Assembly: GCA_963816085.1 (NCBI GenBank)
Contig: CAWFIX010000003.1
Coordinates: forward strand, 487,167 to 551,166
Origin: Candidatus Uhrbacteria bacterium
GTDB taxonomy: Bacteria > Patescibacteriota > Patescibacteriia > 2-12-FULL-60-25
DNA: 64,000 nt
Direction: 5' to 3'
In this document: positions 81 to 60,336 of the stretch, in pieces
Numbering within the stretch: the stretch's first letter is position 1
Layout: each line of letters begins with the position of its first letter
Translations under genes and position numbers: made by a program
Notes under the pieces: generated by a model
Databases searched by the model: none
Told to the model about the DNA's origin: nothing
The model's input: the letters and a program-made list of their open reading frames with translations, nothing else

Positions 81-113
81 ACGTTACTGCGTTAAGACGT
101 TATGACGTTAAGG
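81..113. repeat. Short-period tandem repeat tract, ACGT-core family (8-nt period)
   Basis: Units acgttact/gcgttaag/acgttatg/acgttaag read directly. Abuts the GtrA stop codon. Same family as 46306-46387 and 46903-46984. Confidence 0.8.
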
Positions 114-593
114 CTATGGTCGTTTAAATGTGTACCATCTGTGGCCGGCGTAGGTGAAGAGTGGGACGGCGAGGCCGGCTAAAAATACCATGTACAGATC
201 GTAAATTTTGATGATGCTGTGGCCAAACCAAAAAATAAAAGCGTTGAGGATTATCGCTAAAACCGCAACAATTGTGTAACGACCAACTGAATTTTTAGGT
301 ATTGCGTGATCTTTAAATGTCCACAAGCGATGAGCTGTGTAATTTTCTGCAACAACAAAACCCATTACCAGATAGTAAACGTAAGTGCGAGAAATATCGG
401 GCATTAAAAAACGTGAAAAAATGAAATAGAGTACAAATTGAAATGCAAAAGTGGAAGCTCCAACCATACCAAACCTAACAAGCTTCCAAAACTCTTTTTT
501 GTATTTTTCTGAATCAGTCGACCTTCGACGTTTGACGTTAGACGTTCGACCTTCGACGTTTGATGTTGGTTGTTTATCTTGGCCAAGTGTCAT
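114..593 (-). CDS. GtrA-family membrane protein (start uncertain; ORF open to 659)
   Basis: Four-TM body with a GtrA-like 'VAENYTAHRLWTFK' segment. The N-terminal part of the long ORF is read through the heptad tract 517-567, so Met at 593 or 467 are candidate starts. Confidence 0.7.
   Translation of the reverse strand: MTLGQDKQPTSNVEGRTSNVKRRRSTDSEKYKKEFWKLVRFGMVGASTFAFQFVLYFIFSRFLMPDISRTYVYYLVMGFVVAENYTAHRLWTFKDHAIPKNSVGRYTIVAVLAIILNAFIFWFGHSIIKIYDLYMVFLAGLAVPLFTYAGHRWYTFKRP
517..567. repeat. Heptad tandem repeat tract (GACGTTn units)
   Basis: cgacgtt/tgacgtt/agacgtt/cgacctt/cgacgtt/tgatgtt. Lies between the S8 stop (574) and the GtrA body. Translated as TSNVEGRTSNVKRRRST in the long ORF. 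Confidence 0.85.
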
Positions 594-1439
594 AGAAAAG
601 TTTCCCCTCCACTCCATCCAGCTTTTCTCCAAGAGGCGCTTGCCTCCATTGCCAAACATTTACTTCTTTTGCTTGCTCAGCGTCTAAGATTTGAATCATG
701 CCATCTTTTTCCATTAAGTACGAAGGCTCACCGCTTTGAACAAATCGTAAAAGCTCACGACTATCGGCAGATAAGGCGCTAATCATTCTTAAACGATCGG
801 GATGCGTAGTCTCGATTATTGTTCCCTCCTCCAAGTTCCAGCGGTTTAGTAAAAACAATTGTGAATCGGTTATACCTCGTTTTAAGATTACAAAAGATTG
901 CAGTGGGCGCTCTAAGCCGATCGCCATCAAGCCATTTGGATTAGCTTCTTCGCCAAAGGTGATTGGATCTGTTTTGGTTTCTTCGGGAGATATGAGCCAA
1001 GCCCGGTTGCCGGATTGTTCCGTAAAAAGGATATTGTCCCAGCCCGAGGCGTTTATATCTTGAGTTGCGATAAGCAGGCCGCCGTTGATTGGCGGGTCGG
1101 ATTGCTCGGCCAGTTGACCGGCTGCAACCAAAACTCCATCGGTGCGGAAAACTCGCCATGCTCCCCTATCATCTCCTTCGGCGGTGACAATGACTTCGGG
1201 GTAGCGATCATCATCCCAGCGGATAAATGCGGCGCGAATTGCACGTTTATCGCCCGGGTTGCCAACCGGAAAAGTAAACAGTTCGTTGCCTTTTATGTCG
1301 GTAATCCAGATTGTTGGTGATTGATATTTTTCGGATGCGTATAAATTCCAGGAGCCGTATTTAAGCGAGCTGGCATCTGTTAGAGCCGCATAAGCATCCA
1401 ACATGCCCGCACCCATGCCGGTGGAATCTATTTCCGGGA
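574..1439 (-). pseudogene. C-terminal continuation of the S8 peptidase (end of subtilase fold plus repeat/propeller-like domain), in a different frame
   Basis: Frame of ORF 574..1662 carries 'GMGAGMLDAYAAL' (typical subtilase C-terminal motif). A bridging piece 'VAAMLKAKYPTWTGEQLAQRILDTAQP' sits in a third frame (ORF 1361..1696). Confidence 0.75.
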
Positions 1440-2537
1440 TTAAATGGTTGCGCTGTATCCAAAATCCTCTGCGCCAGCTGTTCGCCTGTCCAGGTTGGGT
1501 ATTTGGCTTTGAGCATGGCAGCGACATCCGGAGACGAGCGGAGCGGACATGGATGTGCCACTCCAAGCGCCATAGCCCGAAACTTCTTGATGATTGCCAT
1601 CGGGATCGTATGTGGGGCGCGCGGCAAAGATTTCGCCACCGGGTGCGGCGAGGCTGGTGCAAGAGCCGTAATTAGCTGATTCGTATTTTGACCCATCCGG
1701 ATTTGTGCCCGTGACTACAAGCAAACTTTGGCTGGCGGCACCGGGGTGGCATGCCGGGAAGGTTTCGTAGTCATCAAAATTGTGGGCAATGCCATCAAAA
1801 CCATTGCCGGCCGCAATAACAACAAGTACGCCCTCTGATGTGGCTTCGAGGATTGCATCAGCTACGGCTTGATCGAGCATGTCGCCCTCGAGGCTCATAT
1901 TGATAATGTCGGCACGATGGCGAGTTGCATAAATGATAGCCTCGGCTAATTTATCTGTGCCCCCGGAGCCATCACCATCGAGAATCACAAGGGGCATAAT
2001 TTTTACATTCCAAGCCATGCCGGCCATGCCGATATTGTCATTACCACGAGCGGCTATTAGCGAGGAGGTGATTGTTCCATGTTCCCAAGCACCAAACTCA
2101 TCGTTACTGGCATTTTTTATTGGACGCGTATCCGCAGTATCTTCTACAAAGTTCCAACCATGCGCATCATCTATATGACCGTCCGCGTCATTATCTTTTC
2201 CATCGATTGGTTCGTCAGGGTCTGCCCAAAGAGCACCTTTTAGATCGGGGTGAGAATCATCAATACCACCATCAATTACGGCGACAACGATATCGCGCGA
2301 TGAAGAGGTTGGCGCAATAGCCCAAGCTTCGTATGCATTGATAGCATCCAAATACCACTGACTGCGTTGGAATGTATCGTTAATTACCATGCGCTCGGGG
2401 GCTGTGCTGATGAGCGTTGGTACTGCAAAATCCACATAAAGGGTTGGAATTGGTAATTCTGCGGCTAAAGCCGGATTTGCCACCGCAAAAAGCATCAATA
2501 TTAGTGATGACAGAGAGAGGATTTTGTTGAATTTCAT
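1440..2537 (-). pseudogene. Subtilisin-like S8 serine peptidase, N-terminal catalytic fragment (frameshifted after the Ser motif)
   Basis: Signal peptide MKFNKILSLSSLILMLFAVANPALA. Asp 'VAVIDGGID', His 'HGTITSS' and Ser 'SGTSMSAPLVSG' motifs. The frame breaks near 1527 and again near 1443. Confidence 0.85.
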
Positions 2538-2799
2538 GGGGTGATTATAACTTAGTCTAAACTGATTCACAAGCTAATATTGCTAAATCAGATAAGATAT
2601 AAAGAGTATTTTAGTTTAGCCTTCGGCGACTCACTTTTGTGACCAAAAGTAAGCAAAAGTCCTGGGGTCCGCGATGCCCTCTCATTTCATGGGTAGCACT
2701 TTCTCTTTTACCATCCACGGTTACGCTACCCCCAGACCCCTTGGAGATTTAAATCGAAGATTACAACAATGCAATTATCTTTGTTATTTGTAATTCAAT

Positions 2800-4173: not shown

Positions 4174-4177
4174 AGGG

Positions 4178-4295
4178 CTGGCTCTGGGGTGAACTCACCC
4201 CTAACCCCTCTCTTAAGATCAATAGAGGGGGATCTGACCTGACAAATCCTAGAGCACCCTTTCTCTTGATCTTAAGAGAAAGGGCTGGGGATGGA
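4178..4295. mobile_element. MITE/REP-like composite palindrome (GGGGTGAACTCACCCC family)
   Basis: Hairpins ggggtgaactcacccc, cccctctcttaagatcaatagagggg and ccctttctcttgatcttaagagaaaggg. Related copies at 22150-22320 and 59646-59757. Confidence 0.75.
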
Positions 4296-4306
4296 GTTTA
4301 TCGCAG

Positions 4307-5197
4307 CTAAATCCTCTTCCGGATTCTCAAGATTGCTTTGATGGCTTCGATACCGTCCCTAAAATGGCGGATTTGGCTTTTGCGGTTGGGATAGCGGAAT
4401 TCGAGCCATGGGACGGGGACCTCGGTTATCCTTAACCTATCTTGCCTGGCTTTTGCTAAAAATTCAATATCCAAAAACCAACCGTCCTCCTCGCAAGATT
4501 TAAGCACAGCCAAGCCTTTTTCGTTCATTATTTTTAAACCGCATTGTGCGTCCGCTACTTTAAGATTTAAAAAGAGGTCGGCCATGAAGTTAAAGAGTTT
4601 TGAGCTTAGAGTTCGGAGCCAGTTGCGGTTCGTGGTTTTGGTGATGAGCAAGCGTGAGGCAATGACGATGTCGGCTTTGTCTTCGAGCAGTCGCGCGACC
4701 ATGCCGGGGATGGCATCCGGGTCGGCGGAGAGGTCGGCATCGATGAAACCGAAGAGACTGTCGAACGACGAACTTCGAACCACGAACTTCGATTCGGAGG
4801 GCGGAAATCTCCCAATCAACGCTTTGCGTTGATATCCCTCTTTATTAAAGAGGGTTTCAGAAACCTGATTAGATGCAAAACGGATCGCGGAGCCTTTGCC
4901 GACTTTGGGACAATCTAAATAGACAAATTGGTCCTGGGTCCTGGGTACTGAACCAACCGATTGGTCCTGGGTCCTGGGTACATGGTCCTGGTTACTTTTG
5001 TCGGAGCCAGGACTATGGACGTAGGACCATGTACGAATGATTTCTTCAGTAGTTTGTTTAGTGTTATCGGTTGATCCATTATCAGCTACGATTATCTGCC
5101 ATGGGATAGGTAAATCGGCCAGGGTTTTGGCGAGGCGGTGGAGGGTGTTTGTGATGTAGGGGGCTTCGTTGCGGGAAGGGATGACGAGGTGGAGCAT
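4307..5197 (-). CDS. GT2 glycosyltransferase (polyprenol-phosphate hexosyltransferase-like) carrying two repeat-derived in-frame inserts
   Basis: 'VIPSRNEA', 'IVADNGSTDNT', 'GKGSAIRFA' and DXD 'FIDADLSADP'. Inserts VPRTQDQSVGSVPRTQDQ and ETLFNKEGYQRKALIGRFPPSESKFVVRSSSFDS coincide with DNA repeats. Confidence 0.85.
   Translation of the reverse strand: MLHLVIPSRNEAPYITNTLHRLAKTLADLPIPWQIIVADNGSTDNTKQTTEEIIRTWSYVHSPGSDKSNQDHVPRTQDQSVGSVPRTQDQFVYLDCPKVGKGSAIRFASNQVSETLFNKEGYQRKALIGRFPPSESKFVVRSSSFDSLFGFIDADLSADPDAIPGMVARLLEDKADIVIASRLLITKTTNRNWLRTLSSKLFNFMADLFLNLKVADAQCGLKIMNEKGLAVLKSCEEDGWFLDIEFLAKARQDRLRITEVPVPWLEFRYPNRKSQIRHFRDGIEAIKAILRIRKRI
4761..4796. repeat. Heptad tandem repeat tract (GAACTTC/GAACnAC units) inside the GT2 ORF
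   Basis: tcgaacgacgaacttcgaaccacgaacttcgattcg. Same family as 15428-15460. Confidence 0.8.
4800..4853 (-). mobile_element. Hairpin-module element (two small hairpins) inside the GT2 ORF
   Basis: Reverse strand reads ccctctttaataaagaggg, tatcaacgcaaagcgttga, ttgggagatttccgcc. About 80% identical by eye to 22632-22690. Confidence 0.75.
4928..4992. repeat. Heptad tandem repeat tract (TGGTCCT/GGGTCCT units) inside the GT2 ORF
   Basis: tggtcctgggtcctgggtac ... tggtcctgggtcctgggtacatggtcctgg. Confidence 0.85.
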
Positions 5198-14245: not shown

Positions 14246-16552
14246 TTAGTTACCGGGTTTTATGTATTTATTCATATTGGCAATTAAAGCCGGCAGACTG
14301 TGCTTTGCCTTAATTATATCTCTTAAGTATTCAATATCATAATCTTTCCACTTTTCAGCAAGTATGAAATCCGCCATTTCCTTGGGATCGTCATTTTGGA
14401 TGGATACTGGCAAGCCGATAGCATTTGAGTTGCCTTTTGTGGTAATGGGGTAAATACCGAACAACATTGCCTCTACCATGGTTTTATCAATTGTCTCTGA
14501 GGCCATGTTGACCATCAATCTGTGCTTAGGATAGACCTGTTTAAGCTGGTGCATGGGGACCGGACCCATGAATTTAACACGCGATTCCAGCGATTCTTTT
14601 GCAACCAGCGCCTTAAGTTCTTCCACATATTCTTTCTCAACATCTCTACCGTAAATTGTTAAGTTGTATTTTTCCGGTAAATGTTTTAATGCTAAAATTC
14701 CCAATTCAAGGCGCTTGGATCTGCATAGGCGATGGACGGTTAGTAAATTATATTTTGTTTCATCGTCTGAACCGCGGATCGTTTCTGCCTCTTGCAGCCA
14801 AAAATCCAAATCGATTCCGTGCCCCAAAACAACTTTCTTGGTTCTCCCCTCATATTGTGGGAGACTTTGTTTTGTTGCAGCGAACATTCTCCGGCAAAGC
14901 AACCCCGACAGGAAAACATGTACATGCATGACGTAATGAGTAAACCAAAGATATATCGGGATTCTCCTTAGTGCCCAATACCACCCACCCAAAGTCACAT
15001 ACTCGGTATTCATGTGAACAAAAACTCTGTTGTATTTTAATGAAATTATTATTTTATAAAATTCAAAAATTCTCCGAATTTTGCCGTAACCCTTTTCTTT
15101 GCCCAGGGAATGAACCGGGAAAGAACCATCAAAAGCCCCCTTCTCCAAACAAATGACTTCGACATCGACTCCTTGCCTAATAAACTCTTTTATCCAAAGA
15201 ATGGTAAAAGCTAAATCATCATCATCTTGATTGATCTTTTGCGTTAAAAAAAGCATTTTAACTTTTTCTTCTGAATTTTGTTGATTTATCATAGATTGTT
15301 TTTCTTCATCGAATCGATTCTCGTGAGCACCCTCACTAAACTTCCAAAAATCTTCATCTTCCTTTTTTTTAGCGGATAGCTGATGGCTGATGGCGGATAG
15401 CAGGAAAACCTTCATGCTCGCTTCGCTCGCGAACATCGAACTTCGAACAACGAACAACGATTTTCCCAAAACAGATACCATTGCATTAGCTAGAGCGACT
15501 ACATCGCCGACGGGGACGATGATGCCGTTTTCGCTGTTTTTGACGACTTCCTCGGCACAGCCGACATCTGTCATTATAACAGGCGTGCTGCAGGCAAGCG
15601 ACTCAACGGCAGTCATGCCAAAGCCTTCGCGATCCGAGGTGATTAGTGTGGCGATAGCGTTGCGATAGAGTTCGGCGAGATCGTTTGTCCAGGGGATTAT
15701 TTCCACTCTGCTATGCAAATCAAAATCAGCGATCCATCTTTTAACTTGATCCTCGAGCGGGCCTGCGCCAACGATTTTTAGGTTAACATCAGGGTTTTGC
15801 TTGGCAAAGATGCTGAAGGCGTGGATTGCGAGGTCGATGCGCTTGATGGGGACGAAGCGGCAGACGACTAAAAAGTATTTTGTATTTTGTATCTCGTATC
15901 TCGCTGATCCCTGAGCGTCGTCCGTCACTGTCCACTGATCACTGTTCACTGCCCCCTGTTCACTGTTCACTAAGTTACTCTTTGCAGTTTGCAGTTTGAA
16001 GTTTTCATTTAGCACGACCGGAAAGCGGACGATTCGCTCCCTCGGCACGCCAAGCTTGATAAGTGCTTCTTCAGTTCTTTGGCTGACGACGCGGATTGCA
16101 TCCGCGCGGGTGACGATGAAGCGAGCAAAGAGATAGCGGAATTGGTTGAGCCAGGATTCTTGGCGGTAATAGTTACCGTGGAAGTGATAGCCGTGGTCTT
16201 GGATAGCGAGTGCTGAGTTTAAGAACTTTGACGCTAAATAGGCGACCAAGCCTGTCTCTGTAGGGTCTTGGGATGTGATGACTGCAAATTTTTGTTTGCG
16301 CAATTTCCAAACGATTCTTAGCGCATCGGTAACGTAAAAAAACTTGTTCCACGAGTTGGTGGAGATGACGCGCAAATTCGGCGTTATTCGCTCGTCAAAC
16401 TTTTGCTTGGCAAAGACGATGATCGTGGATTCAAAGCCCGCCTCTTCGAGTTGTTTGGCAATCCTTCCCCTCGCCGGGTGCCCATCTTGAAAAAGGCCTT
16501 TCTCGAGGCCGATTACCAACAATGGTTTGCGCTTTTCATTTTGATCGGGCAT
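14246..16552 (-). CDS. Tandem double GT4 glycosyltransferase (one ORF; could be two genes, second Met at 15256)
   Basis: First GT-B unit has 'SDREGFGMTAVESLACSTPVIMTDVGCAEEVV'. The second starts 'MLFLTQKINQDDDDLAFTILWIKEF'. Heptad-repeat-coded linkers lie at 15371-15460 and 15875-15971. Confidence 0.75.
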   Translation of the reverse strand: MPDQNEKRKPLLVIGLEKGLFQDGHPARGRIAKQLEEAGFESTIIVFAKQKFDERITPNLRVISTNSWNKFFYVTDALRIVWKLRKQKFAVITSQDPTETGLVAYLASKFLNSALAIQDHGYHFHGNYYRQESWLNQFRYLFARFIVTRADAIRVVSQRTEEALIKLGVPRERIVRFPVVLNENFKLQTAKSNLVNSEQGAVNSDQWTVTDDAQGSARYEIQNTKYFLVVCRFVPIKRIDLAIHAFSIFAKQNPDVNLKIVGAGPLEDQVKRWIADFDLHSRVEIIPWTNDLAELYRNAIATLITSDREGFGMTAVESLACSTPVIMTDVGCAEEVVKNSENGIIVPVGDVVALANAMVSVLGKSLFVVRSSMFASEASMKVFLLSAISHQLSAKKKEDEDFWKFSEGAHENRFDEEKQSMINQQNSEEKVKMLFLTQKINQDDDDLAFTILWIKEFIRQGVDVEVICLEKGAFDGSFPVHSLGKEKGYGKIRRIFEFYKIIISLKYNRVFVHMNTEYVTLGGWYWALRRIPIYLWFTHYVMHVHVFLSGLLCRRMFAATKQSLPQYEGRTKKVVLGHGIDLDFWLQEAETIRGSDDETKYNLLTVHRLCRSKRLELGILALKHLPEKYNLTIYGRDVEKEYVEELKALVAKESLESRVKFMGPVPMHQLKQVYPKHRLMVNMASETIDKTMVEAMLFGIYPITTKGNSNAIGLPVSIQNDDPKEMADFILAEKWKDYDIEYLRDIIKAKHSLPALIANMNKYIKPGN
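15371..15460. repeat. Two adjacent heptad tracts (GATAGCn and GAACnTC units) inside the double-GT4 ORF
   Basis: agcggatagctgatggctgatggcggatagc and gaacatcgaacttcgaacaacgaacaacga. Translated as SLFVVRSSMFAS...LLSAISHQLSA. Confidence 0.85.
15875..15971. repeat. Heptad tracts (GTATnTT/GTATCTC and nnCACTG units) inside the double-GT4 ORF
   Basis: gtattttgtattttgtatctcgtatctcg and cgtcactgtccactgatcactgttcactgccccctgttcactgttcact. They lie in the linker between the two Rossmann halves of the first GT. Confidence 0.85.
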
Positions 16553-16729
16553 GGGATGAAAGATAAGATAAATATGACACACCGGTATCGAGATCTTACA
16601 TTAGATTATAGTAAAAGTCGCCCTTTTGTCCACAAAAATGCAATTTCAACTTTATTTGGAGATTATTGCCGAAAAATAGCCATTTTTGCTTGTAAATTAC
16701 GCTATAACCTGATAATCTTGGTTGGTCTT

Positions 16730-31227: not shown

Positions 31228-31274
31228 ATTTATACTTATTTAACTGCCAAATACTATATACAAGATACTAGATA

Positions 31275-41052: not shown

Positions 41053-41130
41053 ATACTCGAACCAGGGTTTACCAGGATTAAAAACTACAAATTTGCAGGA
41101 TTATTCCTTAATATTTTTAATAAACAATCC

Positions 41131-41230: not shown

Positions 41231-41233
41231 AAG

Positions 41234-41272
41234 ACAAAAAGAAAAACACCCTGAGTTCCTAGTTCAGGGTGT
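41234..41272 (-). terminator. Rho-independent terminator of the 41294 gene
   Basis: Minus strand acaccctga-actaggaac-tcagggtgt followed by ttttctttttg. Confidence 0.8.
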
Positions 41273-41293: not shown

Positions 41294-43543
41294 TTAGTTG
41301 GTCAGCGAATTCTCCGAGATGTACCGATGGCAGGAATTCTGCGTCGGCACCTTGGAAAGGCTGACGGGGATTGGCGTGGAGGTGGATTGGCCGAAGCCGT
41401 ATCCACGAGCGCTGATGTTACTCAGCTCGTGGCAAGTTCCACCCCAGTAGGAGTTATCCCATTCGGTGGGGTTGCCCCACTCGAAGTAGAACTCGCGGGG
41501 GGCATAGTAACCAGTGAACGACTTCTCGAAGCATGAGCTGTTGTAGCTCATGGTGTGAGGCTGCCATTCGGGAGCCACTTCCCAAAGCGTGGGCTTCGGG
41601 TGGACATACTCAGACGGACCACATAGCGTGACGACCACAGTTGCAAACGGATCCTTGCCGTTGCAATTTTGGTCTTCACCGTCGCCCCAGATTTCAACAG
41701 CATTGGGGCGGACGCGCGGGTCAGAATCGAGGCAGTCACCCTCGGCAACCGTGTAGCCATCGCCATCAACATCACTTGAGGTGATGAGATGTGAAGGCTC
41801 TGCGATTACCTCGAGGTTGTACCAGCCGCCGCCATTGTCTTTGGCGTAAGGCGGTACAGTCCAGGTGACAATACCATTGCTCTCGACAAAACAGTAGGTA
41901 TTCATCTGATATACAGGTGAGCCGTACTGCTCTGTGGATGAGATCGCGGAGAACGACCAGAAATCGTTTGTGTTCGGGTCGTAATTCACGGGGTCGGTTG
42001 CTGCGTTCCACTCGAAGGCAGTTCCTTCTTTGATCTGAACACTGAACTTGGCCCAGTGCACAGCGTGAGTATTGTTGTACTCACCAAGGAAGTCGCCCCA
42101 TTCAACCGGATTCTGTGACTCGTGATCCACATCCTTTCCGAGGATGTAGTAATCGTGAGCCAATCCATCCGGGTGGCGGAGGAAGCAAGTCAGAGTCGCT
42201 TCGTTTGCCGGCTGTTGCGGAGGATCTGCGATGTAACCATCACAGTTTTCATCCACGTCATTTCCGGCCACTTCCGCGACTCCGGGGTTGATGTCGTATC
42301 GACTGTCGTTGCAGTCACTAGCCTGATCCGCATAGCTCGCGGGCTTTGAGCACGCTTGCGTGGTGACGCTGTCGACGCCGTAACCATCCTTGTCGGCGTC
42401 GCGGTAGAAGGTGGTTTTGACACCTTCGTCAATAACGCCGTCGCAGTTGTCATCATATCCATTACAGGTTTCGGTTGCATTGGGATGAACGTTGAAGTTT
42501 TGGTCGTTGCAATCGCCTTCGGCGACTGTGTAACCATCCTTGTCGATGTCATCAACAATCCCGCCACCCGAGCCACCAGTGCCAGAGGTGCCACCGGTTC
42601 CGGCAGTTCCTCCGCTTCCGGCAGTGCCGCCAGTACCCGATGTGCCACCAGTACCAGACGTTCCGCCCGATCCAGCAACTCCACCAGTTCCCGAGGTTCC
42701 ACCAGACCCGGCAACTCCGCCGGTTCCTGCAGTTCCACCCGTGCCCGAGCTTCCGCCCGTGCCTGAACTTCCACCGGTTCCGGATGCTCCTGCGGCACCA
42801 GCCGTGCCATTCCACTCGCAACTACAGACATGGCTCCAGTCATTATTGATACATTTTTCAGTACCAACGTAATCCGGATCACAGTCGCAACTACGAGATT
42901 CATCGCTTTGGCAGGTTTCGATGAGATAGCAGTTACACATTTCGGACAATTGTCCGTTGATGCACTCTTGCGTTCCATTGAAACCGGAGCCGCAGCGATA
43001 GGAGCAGTCGACAACGGCAGTACAAGAATTGCTTGTTCCACCGGTGCCCGACGTACCACCGGAACCAGATGCTCCACCTGACCCAGATGTTCCGCCCGTG
43101 CCTGCAGTTCCACCGGTTCCGGATGTGCCACCCGTGCCCGAGCTTCCGCCCGTGCCAGATGTTCCACCGGTTCCTGCGGATCCACCTGTACCAGCTGTTC
43201 CACCGGAGCCAGAAGCTCCTGCGGATCCACCGGTGCCTTGGGAATCGGGGCACTTGCACCCCTCAGCCCATGTATTATCGGGCTGGCAGAGCAATTTTCC
43301 GTCGTTGCTATCAGGGCAGTCGCACCACTTCCACGCACCTATTGGTGCGCAATGGTTGGGATCGACCGCAGCTCCAGCGGCACCGGCTTCGCCGGATTCG
43401 CCAGCAGAGCCGGCCGAGCCGGACCCTCCTGCTGCCCCTGCCGCCGAAAGCGGTTGGGGGGAGGTAGTGTCTTCGATGCAACCCGTACCAAATACTCCAA
43501 ATACAAACAAGATACAAGAAACAAACAATTTCCGGCTATACAT
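41294..43543 (-). CDS. Secreted Cys-rich protein with (GTGGxS)n arrays and three Asp/Cys 'putative metal-binding' (MopE-like) motifs; possible lipoprotein; GC-rich
   Basis: Start at 43543 with SD AAGGAG 7 nt upstream. 'MYSRKLFVSCILFVFGVFGTGC'. Motifs 'DKDGYTVAEGDCNDQNFNVHPNATETCNGYDDNCDG', 'DADKDGYG...DCNDSRYDINPG...DENCDG' and 'DVDGDGYTVAEGDCLDSDPRVRPNAVE...DQNCNG'. Confidence 0.8.
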   Translation of the reverse strand: MYSRKLFVSCILFVFGVFGTGCIEDTTSPQPLSAAGAAGGSGSAGSAGESGEAGAAGAAVDPNHCAPIGAWKWCDCPDSNDGKLLCQPDNTWAEGCKCPDSQGTGGSAGASGSGGTAGTGGSAGTGGTSGTGGSSGTGGTSGTGGTAGTGGTSGSGGASGSGGTSGTGGTSNSCTAVVDCSYRCGSGFNGTQECINGQLSEMCNCYLIETCQSDESRSCDCDPDYVGTEKCINNDWSHVCSCEWNGTAGAAGASGTGGSSGTGGSSGTGGTAGTGGVAGSGGTSGTGGVAGSGGTSGTGGTSGTGGTAGSGGTAGTGGTSGTGGSGGGIVDDIDKDGYTVAEGDCNDQNFNVHPNATETCNGYDDNCDGVIDEGVKTTFYRDADKDGYGVDSVTTQACSKPASYADQASDCNDSRYDINPGVAEVAGNDVDENCDGYIADPPQQPANEATLTCFLRHPDGLAHDYYILGKDVDHESQNPVEWGDFLGEYNNTHAVHWAKFSVQIKEGTAFEWNAATDPVNYDPNTNDFWSFSAISSTEQYGSPVYQMNTYCFVESNGIVTWTVPPYAKDNGGGWYNLEVIAEPSHLITSSDVDGDGYTVAEGDCLDSDPRVRPNAVEIWGDGEDQNCNGKDPFATVVVTLCGPSEYVHPKPTLWEVAPEWQPHTMSYNSSCFEKSFTGYYAPREFYFEWGNPTEWDNSYWGGTCHELSNISARGYGFGQSTSTPIPVSLSKVPTQNSCHRYISENSLTN

Positions 43544-43675
43544 GATTTTCTCCTTGTCTTTAGTCCATAATCCTGGATACATAAATCCTGGCGTTGAATT
43601 AGCTGGGATTGTGTACGGAGGAAATGGACGTTTTTCGAGGTTCGATGGGCGTTCTCCTCCATTGGAAAACATATA

Positions 43676-43704
43676 AATATAGCATAAAAATGCCATTTTG
43701 TCAA
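43676..43704 (-). promoter_or_regulatory. Sigma-70-like promoter of the 41294..43543 gene
   Basis: Minus strand TTGACA (43704-43699), 17 nt, TATATT (43681-43676). Confidence 0.5.
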
Positions 43705-45070: not shown

Positions 45071-45137
45071 TACGTCAAAAGTCGAATGTCTAACGTCGAA
45101 CGCATTTCGGACATTTGACGTTTGACGTTTGACGAGG
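45071..45137. repeat. Mismatched inverted repeat of heptads (ACGTCnn / nnGACGT)
   Basis: acgtcaa/aagtcga/atgtcta/acgtcga - loop - ggacatt/tgacgtt/tgacgtt/tgacgag. Confidence 0.9.
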
Positions 45138-46305: not shown

Positions 46306-46387
46306 GGTCATAACGTCGTAACGTCGTAACGTACAAACCACCTCCAACTCCGTTACGACATTAAGACGTTATGACTTTACGACTTTC
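46306..46387. repeat. Mismatched inverted repeat of 8-nt units (GTCGTAAC / CGTTAnGA)
   Basis: gtcataacgtcgtaacgtcgtaacgtaca...ccgttacgacattaagacgttatgactttacgac. Confidence 0.9.
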
Positions 46388-46412: not shown

Positions 46413-46910
46413 ATGGGTTATTACATAATTATCCGCGGGCCGCTGGGTTGCGGAAAAACGACGATAGCAAAAGCACTGGCCGCGAGGTTAAGCGCTGAGT
46501 ATTTATCTGTGGATGAGATTTTAGATGAAAATAAACTTGAAGATAATATGGGGGATGGATTTATCTCACAGGAAAGTTTTAAGAAGGCTGATAATTACTT
46601 ATCGGAAAAAGCTAAAGAGTTTTTGGATAAAAAAATACCGGTTGTTATTGATGGTAATTTTTATTGGAAATCGCAAATTGATGATTTAGCGGAAAAGCTC
46701 ATTTATCCGCATGCGATATTTACCTTGGATGCGCCGCTTGAGGTTTGTATCGAAAGAGACGCTAAGCGCGAGAATCCACTTGGCGAAGATGCGACCAGAG
46801 TAATATACGAAAAAACCACCTCAGTTGAGGCGGGCAAAAAAATTGATGCCACAAAAGACACCGAAGTGGTGATTACTGAGATTATTGATGTGTTATTGAT
46901 GAAGTCTTAA
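46413..46910 (+). CDS. P-loop NTPase / small kinase-like ATP-binding protein
   Basis: Walker A 'IRGPLGCGKTTIAKALA'; 165 aa. Bracketed by two homologous repeat hairpins. Confidence 0.7.
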   Translation: MGYYIIIRGPLGCGKTTIAKALAARLSAEYLSVDEILDENKLEDNMGDGFISQESFKKADNYLSEKAKEFLDKKIPVVIDGNFYWKSQIDDLAEKLIYPHAIFTLDAPLEVCIERDAKRENPLGEDATRVIYEKTTSVEAGKKIDATKDTEVVITEIIDVLLMKS

Positions 46911-46984
46911 AGTCTTAACGTCATAACGTCCTAATGTACAAAAAAACACCCCGTTAAGACGTTACGACTTTATGACGTTAAGAC
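46903..46984. repeat. Mismatched inverted repeat of 8-nt units between convergent genes
   Basis: aagtcttaaagtcttaacgtcataacgtcctaatgtaca...ccgttaagacgttacgactttatgacgttaagact. The loop and arms are homologous to 46306-46387. Confidence 0.9.
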
Positions 46985-48090: not shown

Positions 48091-48121
48091 CGTAGGGATA
48101 AACTTAGTGTTTATCCGTGCC
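48091..48121. repeat. REP hairpin (GGATAAAC type), left flank of RAYT-2
   Basis: cgtagggataaacttagtgtttatccgtgcc. Confidence 0.75.
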
Positions 48122-48128: not shown

Positions 48129-48788
48129 CTATTTTAATTCCTTATTATTTTCATCCTTATCCCACTGCATCGGATTGTAGCTTATATACTCCGAGATTTT
48201 CTCATAATCTTCTTCATCACGGATAACATGCTCATAATAGTTTCTTTGCCAAAGCTTTCCTTGGAAAGGCTTCCATGAATTCTTTTTAACGTTCTTAATA
48301 TACTCAACTGAAGTTCTTGATTTAAAAGCCTGCACGATTCTTCCAAGCGTGTCTTGTTTTGTACCGCTATGTCTACTTGTTTCAACTCGTAGGGGCGTAT
48401 CCTTGTGATCGCCCTCACTAAGGCTACAGCTAATCAAGTTACGCCTTTGGCGACAGAACGGGCGAACACTATGTTCGCGCCCTACGATCGAAAACTGGCG
48501 AATGCTAGGCATCGTCCCTACGCGGTCATTTTGAATTTCGATAATCCCGTGAATGTGATTTGGCATTACGATAAATTCATCCAGAATAATTTGAGGAAAT
48601 TGTTTTTCTAGATTCCGCCATTCGGCATAAAGCATGCAACCGGCATGATTTAATATTATCTTGTGATTTTGAATTTTGCCAAAATAATTTTCGGAGTCAT
48701 TTGTGCAGATAGTGATAAAATAAGAGCCGGAATCGGCGTAATCAAAACCAGGGATACGAATTGATTGTCGGTTTGGCAATTTATTCAT
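48129..48788 (-). CDS. HUH/Y1 transposase-like protein (RAYT type), copy 2, with an approximately 100-nt REPIN read through in frame
   Basis: 'GSYFITICT' and 'MPNHIHGII'. Conserved C-terminal region GRIVQAFKSRTSVEYIK, no catalytic Tyr assigned. The central 'VGREHSVRPFCRQRRNLISCSLSEGDHKDTPLRVE' is coded by REP DNA. Confidence 0.85.
   Translation of the reverse strand: MNKLPNRQSIRIPGFDYADSGSYFITICTNDSENYFGKIQNHKIILNHAGCMLYAEWRNLEKQFPQIILDEFIVMPNHIHGIIEIQNDRVGTMPSIRQFSIVGREHSVRPFCRQRRNLISCSLSEGDHKDTPLRVETSRHSGTKQDTLGRIVQAFKSRTSVEYIKNVKKNSWKPFQGKLWQRNYYEHVIRDEEDYEKISEYISYNPMQWDKDENNKELK
48388..48533. mobile_element. REPIN type II copy embedded inside the RAYT-2 ORF
   Basis: tcgtaggggcgtatccttgtgatcgccctcactaaggctacagctaatcaagttacgcctttggcgacagaacgggcgaacactatgttcgcgccctacga, aligning with 41131-41230. 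Confidence 0.85.
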
Positions 48789-48826: not shown

Positions 48827-48896
48827 CGAAGGCGAACACCACAAGGTCGTCTGGTTTATTAGGTGCGGGCGATCACAAGGATGCGCCCCTACGAGA
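48827..48896 (-). mobile_element. REPIN type II-related element, right flank of RAYT-2 (inverted)
   Basis: The reverse complement starts ctcgtaggggcgcatccttgtgatcgcccgcacc. Confidence 0.75.
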
Positions 48897-48898: not shown

Positions 48899-51097
48899 TT
48901 ATTGCAATTTCACGGTAAACACTTGATCGTACAGCGACCCGGCCTGCGCTTCGTAGTTTGTGTCGCCCCATTTTTCCTCGGGCTCGGGTGGCTCGGCGGT
49001 GGCGATACTTTGTGGGAAGAGAATTTTAACGTTGAGTTCTGCGTTATCGACACCGGGTTGTTTGGGCCAATCGAGGCGATAGGTGCCATCTAAAATTGAT
49101 GCGACGGACGATTTGGGGAGCTCGTAGGTGAAAGCAAGTTTACCTGTTTTGCCAGGTTCGATAGCCCAGAATGCACCGAACACGGTTTTGCCAAGTTCTT
49201 TCATGACGTCGACGGTACCCGGAGCAAAACGACCGCCGGTTTGAGTGAGGTCGCCTGCCATGGCGCCGGTAGATGAGATGAGTTGGCTACCCTCGGGAAC
49301 ATAGACGCGAGTGTAACTGCGGTAACGAGTGTAACGCCAAGTGATTTGCCTGTTTGTGTTTTGATACGTGAAGGTGACGTTGGCTTTCGGATGCTCGAGA
49401 TCGCGTGCATCAAGAGTATATTGAATTGATTTTGACATCACGCCATCCGTTTTTAGTGCTGCGAGATTGGCATCGATTATCCAAAGAAAGTCTCCATCTG
49501 TTGGTTTAGTTCTACCACTCCAATTGCGAGCGTCTACAACAGATTGAATCTTGGGATTGCGATTGTAGATGAGGATTTGTTTTTGATCGAGTGCTGTGGT
49601 GATGATGCTGATAATTTTTGGCCATTCGGACCTTGGTAGAGCTTGGATTTTAGCCAGAATCTCATCCCCTACTTTGCCCATTAAATCTTTGCGATTTTCT
49701 TGAGTGATATCGGGCGCGACTTCGACTTCGTATTGAAGCACATCCATGAAGTTTGAAGTATTAAATGTTTTACCTTCCACGATGACCGGGCCGGTGAAAG
49801 CTAGGAGGGATTCGAAAAATCCCGGTTCCAAGGCGATAAAACCATCTTGATGCGGTGCGGGCTTGCCAAGTGGGACCGCGCGCTCACGTTCGTAGAAATC
49901 CAGAATCCTCTCGGCGGAAGTTGGGAAATCGGGCGACCAGTTAGCATCGCGCATAAACCATTTGGTAACACCGAGATTTTTTTGGATGGGTGCGGGCGGT
50001 ACTTCGCTCCAAACTCCTGAGGCTGGATTATCGATGTCGTAAATATCAAAAAATTCGTATGATTCGATATTGCCCGCATCCAGCTCCGCTGTGACGATAC
50101 TTCCGATAAAACCTCCAGCCGGGCGAATCTCGTCGGCATTTTGAGTTGCTATCACATAATTTTGTGGATCCGGATAGCCAAGCAAAGGAATGAATACTTC
50201 GATTAAAGGGACTCCTTGTTCGAGAGATTGTTGCAAAATTGGCAAGTAAACAGTCATTGGCTCGAGCGCGTCGCGGATTGGGCCGGCGAGTTGATCTTTG
50301 GGCAAATCGTTCCACATGGCAAGAGCGATATCGATTTTATCACGAGCAAGGCGGATCTCGGGTAAAGATCTGTAAAGTGATTCCAACAATGCCAAACGCT
50401 CTTCCTTGGTTAGATCTTGCAGGCGCTCGGAAGCATCGACATCCACCTGGGTCGCACCGGTTGTTTTTGTGGCAAGGAACATTGCTTCTTGCAATGCGCC
50501 GGCAACATTTAAAATATCTTGTACGCCATCTAATGTTTGTGAGCTGACTTGAGCAGTATCTTGTAATCCACGGATTTGAGTACCAAGGTAAGGCATATCG
50601 CGCCAAAAGCCAACGCCGTTTAGATAGCTCTGCATGGCATCAAACTGTTCTTGCGCTGTGCCGGCTTCGGATTTAGCGGAATCGAACTCGCCTGCCTCCA
50701 GCATGTTTTGCATGCTCTCGAGCGAGAGTTTAGCTTGATAGCCAGACCAACCGGCACGACCCAAGGCGATAAGCGGCGGGATAAAGAAAATTCCCAAAAT
50801 AATTACTACCGCAAGAATTGCATATCTGAGTTTACGGTTTTTCTTAACTTTTCCTCGTCCCACGTCGCTCGTCCCACGTCCTACGTCGGCTGCGTTGCGT
50901 TCAATATCATCATCCGGGCGGAGAGGAATGAAGGGTTTACCTACGTCAACGCGTCCCACGTCGCTCGTCCCACGTCCCGCGTCAGCAACACCAATAACGT
51001 TATTGGGTACAACTTCGGAAACTGAAGAATCCAGCTCGTGGGGAGGCGGTAGTGAGGGGACGCTTGGGCAAGTTAGAAAATTCGGTGATTGCACCAT
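48899..51097 (-). CDS. DUF4012-like membrane-anchored protein
   Basis: N-terminal TM 'YAILAVVIILGIFFIPPLIAL'. 'NYVIATQNADEIRPAGGFIGSIVTAEL' matches the DUF4012 core as I recall it. The N-terminal tail carries heptad-coded 'GRGTSDVGR' repeats. Confidence 0.7.
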   Translation of the reverse strand: MVQSPNFLTCPSVPSLPPPHELDSSVSEVVPNNVIGVADAGRGTSDVGRVDVGKPFIPLRPDDDIERNAADVGRGTSDVGRGKVKKNRKLRYAILAVVIILGIFFIPPLIALGRAGWSGYQAKLSLESMQNMLEAGEFDSAKSEAGTAQEQFDAMQSYLNGVGFWRDMPYLGTQIRGLQDTAQVSSQTLDGVQDILNVAGALQEAMFLATKTTGATQVDVDASERLQDLTKEERLALLESLYRSLPEIRLARDKIDIALAMWNDLPKDQLAGPIRDALEPMTVYLPILQQSLEQGVPLIEVFIPLLGYPDPQNYVIATQNADEIRPAGGFIGSIVTAELDAGNIESYEFFDIYDIDNPASGVWSEVPPAPIQKNLGVTKWFMRDANWSPDFPTSAERILDFYERERAVPLGKPAPHQDGFIALEPGFFESLLAFTGPVIVEGKTFNTSNFMDVLQYEVEVAPDITQENRKDLMGKVGDEILAKIQALPRSEWPKIISIITTALDQKQILIYNRNPKIQSVVDARNWSGRTKPTDGDFLWIIDANLAALKTDGVMSKSIQYTLDARDLEHPKANVTFTYQNTNRQITWRYTRYRSYTRVYVPEGSQLISSTGAMAGDLTQTGGRFAPGTVDVMKELGKTVFGAFWAIEPGKTGKLAFTYELPKSSVASILDGTYRLDWPKQPGVDNAELNVKILFPQSIATAEPPEPEEKWGDTNYEAQAGSLYDQVFTVKLQ
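50855..50986. repeat. Two heptad tracts (CGTCCCA/CGTCGCT units) inside the DUF4012 ORF
   Basis: tcgtcccacgtcgctcgtcccacgtcctacgtcgg and cctacgtcaacgcgtcccacgtcgctcgtcccacgtcccgcgtcagc. Same family as 58514-58550. Confidence 0.85.
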
Positions 51098-54983: not shown

Positions 54984-55060
54984 ATCGTCAAATGTTGAAC
55001 TTCTAACGTTAAACTGCATTGAAATGACGTAGGACGTTTGACGTGCGACGTGCGACGATC
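54984..55060. repeat. Mismatched inverted repeat of 7-8 nt ACGT-core units
   Basis: atcgtcaaatgttgaacttctaacgttaaa - loop - atgacgtaggacgtttgacgtgcgacgtgcgacgatc. Confidence 0.8.
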
Positions 55061-57888: not shown

Positions 57889-57922
57889 AGCTGATAGCGG
57901 ATAGCCGATGTCTGATAGCGGG
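57889..57922. repeat. Heptad tract (GATAGCn units)
   Basis: agctgatagcggatagccgatgtctgatagcggg. Same family as 15371-15401. Confidence 0.8.
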
Positions 57923-57957: not shown

Positions 57958-57992
57958 ATAAAAACGCTCCGATTGCTCGGAGCGTTTTTTTG
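57958..57992. terminator. Bidirectional rho-independent terminator between the 57886 gene and rplL
   Basis: aaaaacgctccga-ttgc-tcggagcgttttttt. Confidence 0.9.
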
Positions 57993-57994: not shown

Positions 57995-58038
57995 GTACGA
58001 AGTACGAAGTACGAAGTACGATGTACGACGTACGTCGA
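57995..58038. repeat. Heptad tandem repeat (GTACGAA x3, GTACGAT, GTACGAC, GTACGTC)
   Basis: Read directly. Lies immediately 3' of rplL. Confidence 0.9.
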
Positions 58039-58469: not shown

Positions 58470-58513
58470 AAACTTATTTTAATTAATAAATAATAGATAA
58501 TAAATAATAAAGA

Positions 58514-58586
58514 TTCGTCGCTCGTCGCACGTCCTACGTCCCACGTCTTAACTCGTGATAAACGTTATGAACGTTACAAACGTAAT
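58514..58586. repeat. Mismatched inverted repeat of heptads (CGTCnnn / AACGTnn) between rplJ and rplL
   Basis: cgtcgct/cgtcgca/cgtccta/cgtccca/cgtctta - aactcgtgat - aaacgttatgaacgttacaaacgtaa. Confidence 0.85.
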
Positions 58587-59277: not shown

Positions 59278-59284
59278 AAAACTT

Positions 59285-59330
59285 AACGTACTTATTTAAC
59301 TCGTACTAAGTACTGCGTACTACGAGCTAT
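59285..59330. repeat. Heptad-like tract (CGTACTn units), complement family of 57995-58038
   Basis: aacgtacttatttaactcgtactaagtactgcgtactacgagc, just 5' of rplJ. Confidence 0.7.
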
Positions 59331-59359: not shown

Positions 59360-59489
59360 ATAACCAATCACCAAGCTCCAATCATCAATAAATATCCAAT
59401 CACACAATTTTCAATCACCAAATTGATCATTTGAGTTGAATCGGTTATTGGTTATTTATTGGTTATTGTTTTGTTGGTTATTGGTTATT
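59360..59489. repeat. Long mismatched inverted repeat of heptads (CCAATnA / GGTTATT)
   Basis: ataaccaatcaccaagctccaatcatcaataaatatccaatcaca... / ...cggttattggttatttattggttattgttttgttggttattggttatt. Confidence 0.85.
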
Positions 59490-59645
59490 AAAGTACCCAC
59501 AGCATCCTGTGGGTAAAATCGCTAAATTAAGCGATATTTACAGCCTCGGCAGGGGATCTTTTAACTCCTTTTTAGGTGGAGCCCTGCTGTCTTTGGATGT
59601 GTGATGGACACAATATAAACCGAATAGAACATTGTGTCAACATAG

Positions 59646-59757
59646 CTCTGGGATGAACTCCATCCCTACCCTTCCTCTTAATTAAGAGGAAGGATGGTTT
59701 AAGAAACTGTAATTCAGCCCCTCTAATGACTTTAAGAGAGGGGGAAGGGGGTGAGTC
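59646..59757. mobile_element. MITE/REP-like composite palindrome (same family as 4178-4295)
   Basis: ctctgggatgaactccatccctacccttcctcttaattaagaggaagg...cccctctaatgactttaagagaggggg...gggggtgagtc. Confidence 0.75.
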
Positions 59758-59772
59758 AAAACCAGGCTACAG

Positions 59773-60175
59773 TTAACTAGGCTTAAACCCGGATTTGATC
59801 AGATTCTGCACCGGAATAAAAAGTGGCTCCGGCAAATTGTCCCAATCGTGCCATTGCCAGCATTCGCATTTATCGGGTTCCATGATTTGTGGTTCCCCTG
59901 CCGGTGCATCTGCGAGCATGTAGATTGTGATGTAGTGCTTGTCTTCATCAGGCATTTTATCGTTGGTTGCAGTTGAGAAGCGGATGTTCTCGATATCTAA
60001 ACCGCACTCTTCTTTTGTCTCGCGAGCAGCGCACTCTTCCCAAGTTTCCATCCACTCCAAGTGACCGCCCGGGAAACTCCAATGCCCGGAGCCGTGTGCG
60101 CCTTTGCGTTTGTGCAAAAGGACTTTATGCTTCGCGTATGATGATGACTCCGAGGCCGACACGGACTTCGCTCAT
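59773..60175 (-). pseudogene. NUDIX hydrolase with a frameshift after codon 16
   Basis: NUDIX box 'GGHLEWMETWEECAARETKEECGL' in the main frame. The true-looking N-terminus 'MSEVRVGLGVIIIREA' (ATG at 60175) is in another frame and stops at 60125. Confidence 0.8.
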
Positions 60176-60211
60176 ATTAATTATCAATTACGAATTAACA
60201 ATTAACAATTT
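60176..60211. repeat. Heptad-like AT-rich tract (AATTAnC units)
   Basis: ttaattatcaattacgaattaacaattaacaattt. Confidence 0.7.
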
Positions 60212-60267
60212 AGGAATCGCTGCCCTTCGACTTCGCTCAGGACGAGACGCGATATTTATTTTATTTG

Positions 60268-60336
60268 AGAAGCTAAGAATCTGGGAATCTAAGCGGGCTG
60301 CTCAGATTTTCAGATTCTTAGTAGCTTAGATTCTCA
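60268..60336. repeat. Mismatched inverted repeat of heptads (AAGAATC / GATTCTT)
   Basis: gagaagctaagaatctgggaatctaagc - gggctgc - tcagattttcagattcttagtagcttagattctc. Confidence 0.8.

Follow-up and report, generated by a model that had tools for sequence, protein, structure and literature searches.

The stretch analysed here (the window) comprises 64,000 nucleotides (nt) of contig CAWFIX010000003.1 from the Candidatus Uhrbacteria bacterium assembly GCA_963816085.1 (positions 487,167 to 551,166). It is a glycan-biosynthesis neighbourhood that codes also for MreB and for ribosomal proteins L10 (rplJ) and L7/L12 (rplL), with a gene order from rplJ to a TrmB-like gene that is conserved in nine relatives. 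Intergenic DNA accounts for 10.8% of the window (curated genes), and 19.6% of this DNA is occupied by short-period tandem repeats, mostly of 7 nt, and by hairpins whose two arms are built from them; they take up 0.86% of the coding DNA. A first-pass annotation, made from the letters alone, had described these tracts at gene boundaries as sharing one architecture but not one sequence. It is probable that they are heptad arrays of the short tandemly repeated repetitive (STRR) type known from cyanobacteria, and that the paired ones are insertable, dispersed hairpins of selfish or neutral nature rather than terminators, at least one family of which, with AATAACC arms, derives from a cassette coding for a PF05635 protein and lacks the open reading frame (ORF).

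Short-period tracts and hairpins of the window

A tract is defined as a stretch in which bases match the base p positions on, with a lag-match threshold of 0.7. The window has 28 tracts of period 7 and seven of period 8, while 0.85 and 0.4, respectively, are expected from local-composition shuffles; compared to dinucleotide shuffles the period-7 count is 13 versus 0. Tandem Repeats Finder (TRF) gives dozens of rows with periods of 7, 8 and 9 nt at the coordinates of the first-pass annotation, and inspection of the sequences shows that the tracts are real, with the reservation that the one at 33798-33873 (CAAGATA) is periodic only weakly. TRF also sees higher-order periods of 14 and 21 nt. Its period-9 rows at 39.4-43.4 kb result from two large convergent genes, 39144-40997 (+) and 41294-43696 (-), which code for collagen-like Gly-X-Y repeats with periods of 9, 18 and 36 nt, and were set aside as unrelated. 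CRISPR-like arrays were rejected since spacers are absent. Rfam models at their gathering thresholds and a tRNA scan gave no hit in the window, which is also devoid of rRNA.

Intergenic DNA of the window and of close relatives features autocorrelation peaks at lags 7, 14 and 21, a check that the first-pass annotation had proposed and that turned out positive. In the window the values are 0.291 at lag 7 versus 0.268 at lag 6, and 0.277 at lag 14 versus 0.243 at lag 13. The peaks are absent in E. coli intergenic DNA and, at bulk level, in a Nostoc plasmid sample. Tract density is 3.4 per 10 kb in the window, 0.6 per 10 kb in a 150-kb plasmid of Nostoc PCC 7120 and 0 in a 50-kb sample of E. coli. 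A conserved core with wobbling positions, attributed before to the tracts in general, is found in part of them: in 8 of 22 window arrays the differences between units concentrate in two adjacent columns (p<0.05), leaving a 5-nt core as in AATTAnn, GACGTnn and GTACGnn, while the remaining arrays are not significant. The pattern is weak outside the window (4/78 and 10/105 arrays in other loci), and dozens of unrelated unit cores coexist within one genome.

A scan with the DUF4012 protein of the window yielded 79 loci, 1.37 Mb in total, all from Patescibacteria-type metagenome-assembled genomes (MAGs). Several are labelled Candidatus Uhrbacteria and the best match is 87% identical, in agreement with the candidate phyla radiation (CPR)-like host surmised from the sequence. 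For the L7/L12 protein of the window, a look-up by exact sequence gave no entry. The 79 loci contain 183 tracts of period 7, compared to 65 of period 6 and 32 of period 8; the tracts are patchy among them and occur also in Shapirobacteria and Microgenomates loci. The comparison loci fetched (relatives, metagenome contigs and plasmids) are labelled L001, L002 and so on to L106. The window itself probably comes from a MAG, the one point that could speak for an assembly artefact. Such an origin deserves practically no credence. Orthologous tracts in independent MAGs are 100% identical over 66 nt (L001) and 91.5% over 130 nt (L005), the same tracts and hairpins recur at orthologous sites in assemblies from other studies, and assemblers do not invent imperfect units.

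Hairpins were assessed by comparing RNAfold energies with those of 100 dinucleotide shuffles (z given below for the + / - strand). Seven of the ten hairpins claimed in the first-pass annotation fold far better than their shuffles, with stabilities from -22 to -52 kcal/mol. Their stems are broken by one mismatch every 7-9 nt, precisely the phased mismatches that had been predicted. Arms with 9-nt units are found twice: a long hairpin with TCGATTATT arms (19357-19477; z -8.7/-11.5; TRF period 9) fills a convergent gap, and a AAGTTCATA-armed hairpin (38848-38924; z -5.0/-7.1) lies in a divergent gap, 19 nt upstream of the start of a Wzy-like gene. The 7-nt units of the GACGTTT-armed hairpin (45071-45137; z -3.8/-3.3) stand between the stop codon of a GT4 glycosyltransferase gene and the start of the TrmB-like gene. 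Two hairpins have ACGTCnTA arms (8-nt units), one in the divergent gap between a kinase gene and a GT4 gene (46306-46387; z -6.9/-5.7) and the other occupying the whole convergent gap from the kinase gene to mreB (46903-46984; z -7.0/-5.9). The AATAACC-armed hairpin of ~125 nt (59360-59489, - strand; z -6.2/-6.2) precedes rplJ, and a GAATCTn-armed one (60268-60336; 8-nt units; z -5.7/-5.9) is found upstream of a NUDIX gene; look-alikes of the latter occupy the rplJ-rplL gap of L002 (z -8.9) and L016 (z -6.2). As to the other three claimed hairpins, the weak GACGTnn inverted arrays between o218 and a TsaB-like gene (54984-55060; z -2.3/-0.5) are marginal, and those at 33798-33954 (z -1.6/-1.4) and 58514-58586 (z +0.1/-2.1) do not fold beyond chance.

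The small P-loop kinase gene bracketed by the two ACGTCnTA hairpins (46413-46910, +) is missing from the syntenic position in L002, L003 and L004 and therefore may be a gained or lost cassette.

Single arms are also found. The units ACGTTAnG at 81-112 (TRF period 8/16), 3' of a GtrA-like gene, match the right arms of the hairpins at 46306 and 46903. Similarly, GGTTATT units at 33299-33331 (TTATTGGTTATTGGAGTTTGGTTATTGGTTATT) match the right arm of the AATAACC family and have no left arm nearby. Many tracts are direct arrays without an inverted partner, like those starting at 31161, 57995, 4928, 15923 and 50855. The intergenic (AATTAmC) array at 31161-31228 has 9.7 units (TRF score 101) and no fold on the + strand, and a related (AATTAnC) array (60179-60210) ends 12 nt upstream of the NUDIX gene start. 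Seven TCGACGT/TTGACGT units (517-567) directly follow the upstream stop codon and represent either the 5' leader of the GtrA-like gene or an extension of its N-terminus. Around rplL and rplJ lie an intergenic (GATAGCn) array (57889-57921; TRF), six GTACGAn units (57995-58038) between the rplL stop codon and a canonical terminator (57960-57989), the intercistronic tracts (TAAATAA)n, (CGTCnCn)n and (AACGTTAnn)n (58480-58586), which are identical in L001 and do not build a significant hairpin, and an (AGTACnn) array (59302-59324) located 25 nt upstream of the rplJ start.

Placement relative to genes and turnover among relatives

The tracts were considered in the first-pass annotation to sit exactly between stop and start codons, often where a terminator would be expected. 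Over 80 sequences, in which genes outside the window were called as heuristic ORFs, the number of tracts per kb is 0.98 in co-directional gaps, 0.80 in convergent gaps, 0.85 in divergent gaps and 0.051 in ORFs. This corresponds to a ~18-fold preference for non-coding DNA. The near-equal density in the three types of gap shows that there is no preference for expected terminator sites, and the tracts display no orientation bias relative to transcription of the flanking genes (A 0.378, T 0.370; 42 tracts positive, 44 negative). Canonical terminators, composed of a stem followed by a U-tract, are separate structures: they are localized at 57960-57989, 26897-26928, 23600-23634 and 33974-34002, none coincides with a heptad hairpin, and the terminator scan called none of the heptad hairpins. 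Downstream of rplL a tract and a conserved canonical terminator are found together, the tract between the stop codon and the terminator.

Selected RNA elements, acting as terminators without a U-tract or as 3' stabilisers of mRNA, were the idea of the first-pass annotation. The exact filling of convergent gaps by the hairpins at 19357-19477 and 46903-46984 and their very high stability fit this proposal, and REP (repetitive extragenic palindromic) elements of E. coli have an mRNA-stabilising role. The equal density in divergent gaps, the hairpins in 5' untranslated regions (UTRs) near start codons and the separate canonical terminators contradict it, as do the replacement of families and the empty sites among close relatives, described below, and the fact that no covariation was found. 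It is an improbable explanation of the tracts.

One hairpin in a 5' UTR is the AATAACC element. A full-length match to the L10 leader (RF00557) is found at 59478-59614 (-) with 43 bits (E 1.3e-5), one bit short of the gathering score of 44 and thus missed at the curated threshold. The hairpin at 59360-59489 comes immediately after this leader and before the rplJ start, which places it within the rplJ 5' UTR. The U-tract that should follow the terminator stem of the L10 leader is replaced by the start of the AATAACC hairpin. Including this one, three hairpins are found 8-25 nt from start codons in 5' UTRs (38848, 45071 and 59360).

Placement exclusively between genes does not hold either, because 490 of the 1839 repeat bases, about a quarter, are inside ORFs, where they code in frame for linkers (4761-4792, 4928-4991, 15371-16004, 50853-50984 and 62912-62931). 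Two GACGnGn arrays of the DUF4012 gene (50853-50984, -) encode DVGRGTS-like linkers that flank a conserved KPFIPLRP motif. The amino terminus of this protein is conserved in 10 genomes from the ATG at 51097; the linker arrays are present in the window, in L001, where they are expanded, and in L023, while other relatives have unrelated linkers without repeats. The arrays TCGAACn (4761-4792) and GGTCCTG (4928-4991) are in frame in a GT2 glycosyltransferase gene (4761-4991, -), whose ORF stays open and whose Pfam GT2 domain is split in two. Five more arrays (GATAGCn, CGAACnn, GTATnTn, TCACTGn and TTTGCAG; 15371-16004, -) code in frame for inter-domain linkers of a long GT4 ORF, between Pfam domains at amino acids 188-232 and 372-458. 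This ORF (14246-16582, -) has 778 codons for amino acids and joins two glycosyltransferase modules through an 80-codon stop-free linker that consists largely of heptamer arrays. The ORF could be a fusion that arose, or was preserved, by way of the repeats.

Heptamer arrays within genes for glycosyltransferases recall contingency loci, in which one 7-nt unit more or less would shift the frame and turn genes for surface glycans on or off: the region is devoted to glycan biosynthesis, the GT2 and GT4 ORFs carry arrays, and 7 nt cannot be divided evenly into codons. Within coding sequence the arrays are short and imperfect (2-3 perfect units), and slow mutation is therefore expected. Most arrays are intergenic or found in housekeeping contexts (rplJ, rplL, MreB, DUF4012), and no frameshifted allele was found among the relatives. 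Such a switching role is highly improbable.

The tracts could also be binding platforms on RNA or single-stranded DNA for a protein that recognises a 5-nt core once per 7 nt, like a cold-shock (Csp) protein or one with an S1-type oligonucleotide-binding (OB) fold, and that controls leaders without a Shine-Dalgarno (SD) sequence. The same was proposed for TAACTGA arrays, and CspB binds heptamers (PMC4679880). In the window and loci L001-L024, SD-like motifs precede 21% of the genes called with an ATG, compared to 12% at a control position, and the rplJ and rplL leaders are AU-rich and have no SD. This rarity of SD-like motifs, the variation confined to two adjacent columns in window arrays and the tracts directly upstream of the rplL, rplJ and NUDIX starts, which keep their position in relatives while the unit drifts, are consistent with a platform. 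A reader of one core is difficult to reconcile with dozens of unrelated cores per genome, the absence of orientation bias, the equal density in convergent gaps that have no start codon, the arrays in coding linkers and the weakness of the core-plus-wobble pattern outside the window, and the hypothesis appears distinctly improbable.

Comparison of orthologous sites uncovers two modes of change, drift of the unit and replacement of the element. A tract between the rplL stop codon and the terminator is found at the orthologous position in most relatives examined, with a unit that drifts between TCGTACn, TCGAATn and TCGTATn. Just upstream of rplL the unit is TTATTnA in the window, L001 and L023, TTCTTAA in L003 and L004, and TTGTTAA in L005 and L016; upstream of rplJ it is AGTACnn in the window, L016 and L023, and AGCTAGn in L002, L003 and L005. 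Orthologues of the array at 57889-57921 have AGCTATn in L023 and AGCTAGn in L002. The arrays keep their position and period and their units shift in concert, which is what continued homogenisation by slippage would produce.

Concerted drift also speaks for another explanation, in which all arrays, inverted ones included, are plain simple sequence repeats (SSRs) generated on the spot through slippage of the polymerase and template switching within a strand, the tracts are neutral filler and PF05635 genes are unrelated guests that inserted into such hairpins by coincidence. Heptanucleotides are the commonest class of long SSRs in many bacteria (Mrazek 2007, as relayed in PMC4679880). The higher periods of 14 and 21 nt, the absence of strand bias, the tracts in coding linkers and the lack of any PF05635 gene in the 79 related loci are also easily accommodated. 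Independent slippage, however, cannot produce AATAACC and ACGTCnTA copies that share a specific order of degenerate units, and the loop, at non-orthologous sites and in different genomes. This observation, together with the association of the same arms with related PF05635 genes presented in the next section, makes the purely SSR-based origin unlikely.

One hairpin family has replaced another between the window and L001, in spite of flanking proteins that are 77-98% identical. The gap between mreB and the kinase gene has an ACGTCnTA hairpin in the window, one of the AAGTTCATA type in L001, L005 and L006, one of the AATAACC type in L023 and a mere 8 nt in L020. The gap between o218 and the TsaB-like gene is reduced to 8-13 nt in L002, L005 and L023 and is occupied by four different hairpins in four other genomes (among them L001, L006 and L016). 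At the site corresponding to 45071-45137, L001 has a hairpin of the ACGTCnTA type, while L004, L006 and L023 have gaps of 33-43 nt. The tracts at 58480-58586 are replaced in L002 and L016 by a GAATCTn hairpin and a (TTGTTAA)n array.

The families are not locus-specific, as had been assumed, for they recur at non-orthologous sites and across genomes. The ACGTCnTA hairpin is found, loop sequence included, at three other gaps of L001, and the AAGTTCATA unit of the hairpin upstream of the Wzy-like gene builds also the mreB-kinase hairpin of L001. The hairpins form dispersed families and act like insertable elements; neither this nor the tie of one family to a PF05635 gene cassette had been foreseen in the first-pass annotation. 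Slippage, one of the origins that it listed, probably contributes.

The AATAACC element and PF05635 cassettes

The AATAACC element is ~125 nt long with conserved ends and a variable centre; its ends are heptad arrays, not REP palindromes. The window copy has orthologues in L005 and L023, and copies at non-orthologous sites are found in the DUF4012-mreB gap (L002, L023) and in the mreB-kinase gap (L023). Three to four further copies are present on three long contigs of one metagenome (Ga0265297), and no copy of the element end was found on viral contigs. Most copies retain hairpin potential.

One metagenome copy (L088) has its two AATAACC arms separated by ~450 nt, with a 117-amino-acid ORF between them. 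Its product belongs to PF05635/TIGR02436, annotated as '23S rRNA intervening-sequence protein' or 'four helix bundle protein'; the closest solved structure is 2rld, and PF05635 resembles Avd, the accessory protein of diversity-generating retroelements (DGRs; review PMC10053308). The protein has more than 5000 homologues. DNA was fetched around eleven of them, including two from the genome of L001, the closest relative of the window, one from that of L023, and others from a Parcubacteria contig, a Deltaproteobacterium and a Nitrospirota MAG. All eleven genes have arms of the AATAACC/GGTTATT type against the ORF ends, and the arms pair, with z-scores as low as -16.5 (others are -10.8 and -7.4). 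The reverse complement of the hairpin at 59360-59489 aligns to both arms of PF05635 cassettes (L092, L088), with 44 of 47 positions identical in the left arm, and the window hairpin is therefore a cassette without the ORF. No ORF is found between the arms of the window copy, which is for this reason classified as an ORF-less derivative and not as a full member. The AATAACC family shares traits with miniature inverted-repeat transposable elements (MITEs): its members are short, non-coding and multi-copy, with terminal inverted repeats common to a longer coding element. All PF05635 copies seen here are localized between protein-coding genes and none in helix 25 or 45 of 23S rRNA.

The association of PF05635 genes with heptad arms extends to other phyla. 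Among 72,556 plasmids, 26 encode a PF05635 homologue; 22 of these are from filamentous cyanobacteria and the rest from Bernardetia, Chlorohelix (two) and Treponema. Eight of the ten plasmid homologues fetched have period-7 arrays within 130 nt on both sides, compared to 0 of 129 Nostoc plasmid genes (Fisher test, p 1.6e-11) and to 18 of 1054 genes in CPR loci. The flanking arrays are reverse complementary and pair in at least six of the ten (z -10.5 to -2.8), and stems of plasmid cassettes reach z -10.5 to -7.0. The arm unit varies between cassettes: AATTCGC in N. punctiforme and Nostoc N6, AATTCGT in N. flagelliforme, ATCCCCA and AATCGTA in Planktothrix, GATGAAG in Chlorohelix and CGCTCTC in Treponema. 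The four-helix-bundle gene of Nostoc PCC 7120 (L080 3776..4126) is accompanied by an array on a single side, without pairing of its flanks (z +1.6). The cassettes are usually found between co-oriented genes.

On cyanobacterial and Chloroflexota plasmids, PF05635 cassettes are also found inside defence loci (L102 292-648, L104 292-639, L100 301-660 and L106 283-648), at positions between cas2 and cas1, between the DrmD and MmeI genes, and between a helicase and an N-6 methylase gene.

The arm unit co-varies with the gene subfamily, as exemplified by AATTCGC in N. punctiforme and Nostoc N6, and PF05635 genes related to one another have the same arms in three phyla and in unrelated contexts, which is not accounted for by SSRs that arise in place. 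Related genes keep the same arms in different contexts, which makes it more likely that the arms move together with the gene than that the gene inserts into hairpins already present. A search for inverted arrays 200-2500 nt apart, as brackets of other cargo, yielded only arrays in successive gaps, with no convincing second type of cassette.

The most probable course of events starts from a cassette formed by two inverted heptad arms with a gene for a PF05635/TIGR02436 four-helix-bundle protein between them, an Avd-like family that includes S23p, the protein of 23S rRNA intervening sequences. The arm unit being specific to each cassette would account for one architecture with many sequences. 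After insertion the arrays would lengthen, shorten and homogenise through replication slippage, for which the concerted drift at orthologous sites speaks, and arms could survive alone as direct arrays. The elements would persist wherever they are tolerated: in gaps of any orientation, UTRs, intercistronic spacers and, if the frame is kept, disordered linkers. When transcribed, the arms are predicted to form a long mismatched stem that, by analogy with rRNA intervening sequences, would be a site of RNase III processing and not a terminator; a role of the protein may likewise be envisaged. For the hairpin families other than AATAACC and for the direct arrays, we infer the same origin.

Several observations weigh against this origin. 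No target-site duplication is found at the ends of the AATAACC element, the cargo protein is not a known transposase and no mobilising enzyme was found; searches with tblastn and phmmer gave no PF05635 gene in the window or in the 1.37 Mb of the 79 related loci. The cargo gene is tied to only one of at least six hairpin families of the window. The AATAACC arms are degenerate heptads (lag-7 match 0.57-0.76), of which one in nine passes a strict two-sided periodicity test, and the case for this subfamily is made by sequence homology and pairing and not by clean periodicity. In the family alignment no covariation was detected; the consensus fold of nine copies has 10 pairs and no compensatory change, a comparison limited by repeated arms that allow several registers. 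The flanking arrays of some plasmid cassettes (Bernardetia, Pseudanabaena, Treponema) are direct and not inverted. Causality could also run the other way, with the gene landing preferentially in loops of existing heptad hairpins. Finally, the position of tracts near start codons is conserved despite drift of the unit, which could also reflect function.

A wider generalisation would see bacterial heptad arrays at large, in cyanobacterial STRRs, CPR and Bacteroidota, mostly as arms, solo arms and miniatures of one class of selfish PF05635 cassettes, whose pentameric protein would recognise its own arms and promote their spread or their excision at the RNA level. It would explain the period of 7 and the unit differences from cassette to cassette. 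We hold it to be speculative and rather unlikely.

Significance and comparison with known systems

Heptad arrays have posed the question of their origin and role since cyanobacterial STRRs were described, and the S23p proteins of intervening sequences (IVSs), relatives of Avd, pose that of their function and mobility. STRR-type arrays are of a known kind; the novelty is the tie between heptad-armed hairpins and PF05635 cassettes, which offers a testable origin. Inverted heptamer arrays are regular flanks of PF05635 genes in several phyla and a window hairpin without an ORF has the same arms, so that both questions become testable in tractable organisms such as Nostoc. No publication was found on heptamer repeats, SSRs or REPINs (paired inverted REPs) in Patescibacteria, or on a link of PF05635 to heptamer arrays beyond the description of the Coxiella IVS, in a search carried out largely without subscription journals. 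A streamlined CPR genome tolerates presumably selfish repeats in ~20% of its intergenic DNA, even in the L10 operon leader and, with the frame kept, in genes for enzymes. The repeats bear on gene calling, on the prediction of operons and terminators, and on ideas about genome streamlining in Patescibacteria.

Two further kinds of palindromic repeat occur in the window. A gene for a REP-associated tyrosine transposase (RAYT; 48129-48788, -; NF047646, E 8e-21, 74 bits versus a cut-off of 80) has GTAGGG...CCGTGC REP hairpins on both sides. REPs lie at 26427-26455, 34060-34089, 48092-48120 and ~48862-48890, and the same REP family is found in L001-L006, by which a true REP/RAYT system appears to exist in a Patescibacteria genome. 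Two inverted REP-like sequences (GTAGGGCGCGAAC...; ...CGCCCCTAC) at ~48395-48500 inside the RAYT ORF split the NCBIfam match in two, as if its own REPIN had integrated into the transposase gene without loss of frame. Another REPIN (two inverted GTAGGGGCG-type REPs; ~41130-41235) lies between the convergent collagen-like genes, beside a canonical terminator (~41023-41050). A third palindromic family, G/C-rich (CCCTTTCTCTTAAG...CTTAAGAGAGGGG), is found at 4174-4306 and ~59660-59772 (-56 kcal/mol, z -4.2), with look-alikes in gaps of L002, L004, L005 and L016.

The heptad tracts share with STRRs and long SSRs the tandem 7-nt units, the wobble positions, a mostly intergenic location and the many units per genome. 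The likeness to cyanobacterial heptamers noted in the first-pass annotation is borne out, since a plasmid of Nostoc PCC 7120 used as control contains a heptamer hairpin with inverted arms (L082 25920-25997, z -7.7), and the hairpin form is therefore not unique to CPR. The TCACTGn unit is common to Nostoc and the window; CPR and Nostoc have 2 of 9 heptamer units in exact agreement, which is not beyond chance. The window differs in that its host is a member of Patescibacteria with a small genome, whereas STRRs were originally defined in heterocystous cyanobacteria, that tract density is ~3-6 times that of the Nostoc plasmid sample, that a quarter of the repeat bases are in frame and that some hairpin units have 8-9 nt. 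Among long simple-sequence repeats, defined by units of 5-11 nt, heptanucleotides were the most abundant class and polymerase slippage was proposed as their source, according to the account of Mrazek 2007 given in PMC4679880. The TAACTGA repeats of marine Beggiatoaceae, cyanobacteria and Bacteroidetes (PMC4679880) are also heptamer arrays, many of them a few nt upstream of start codons, with a patchy distribution across phyla. They have a single dominant unit that is almost always direct, in contrast to the many units and frequent inverted pairs of the window.

A close parallel to the cassettes is found in the IVSs of 23S rRNA that carry an S23p ORF in Coxiella, Leptospira, Xanthomonas and others (PMC4990558). 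They too consist of an inverted-repeat stem around a PF05635 ORF, and hairpin versions without the ORF exist. In the Coxiella IVS, terminal inverted repeats form a stem that RNase III cleaves, and the element also has an S23p ORF and tandem heptamers in strain-dependent numbers (PMC4990558). The cassettes described here and their ORF-less forms differ in that they occupy spaces between protein-coding genes and UTRs of mRNAs rather than 23S helices 25 or 45, and in that their arms are long heptad arrays. REPINs and REPs with their RAYT transposases (PMC3116915) are likewise extragenic hairpins of ~100 nt with conserved ends and a variable centre, present in multiple copies and inserted beside, or in replacement of, one another. 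Heptad arms, however, are not short palindromes with GTAG ends, and their sequence is unrelated to the REPs of the window, whose own RAYT gene is flanked by GTAGGG-type REPs and not by heptad arms.

The in-frame copies have a counterpart in Rickettsia palindromic elements, selfish repeats that are tolerated in frame in genes and add disordered segments to proteins, with different units and in different hosts. Borg tandem repeats (PMC9879509) also evolve fast, are tolerated in frame in genes and add disordered segments, and they differ from the heptad tracts in the structure of their units and in their hosts.

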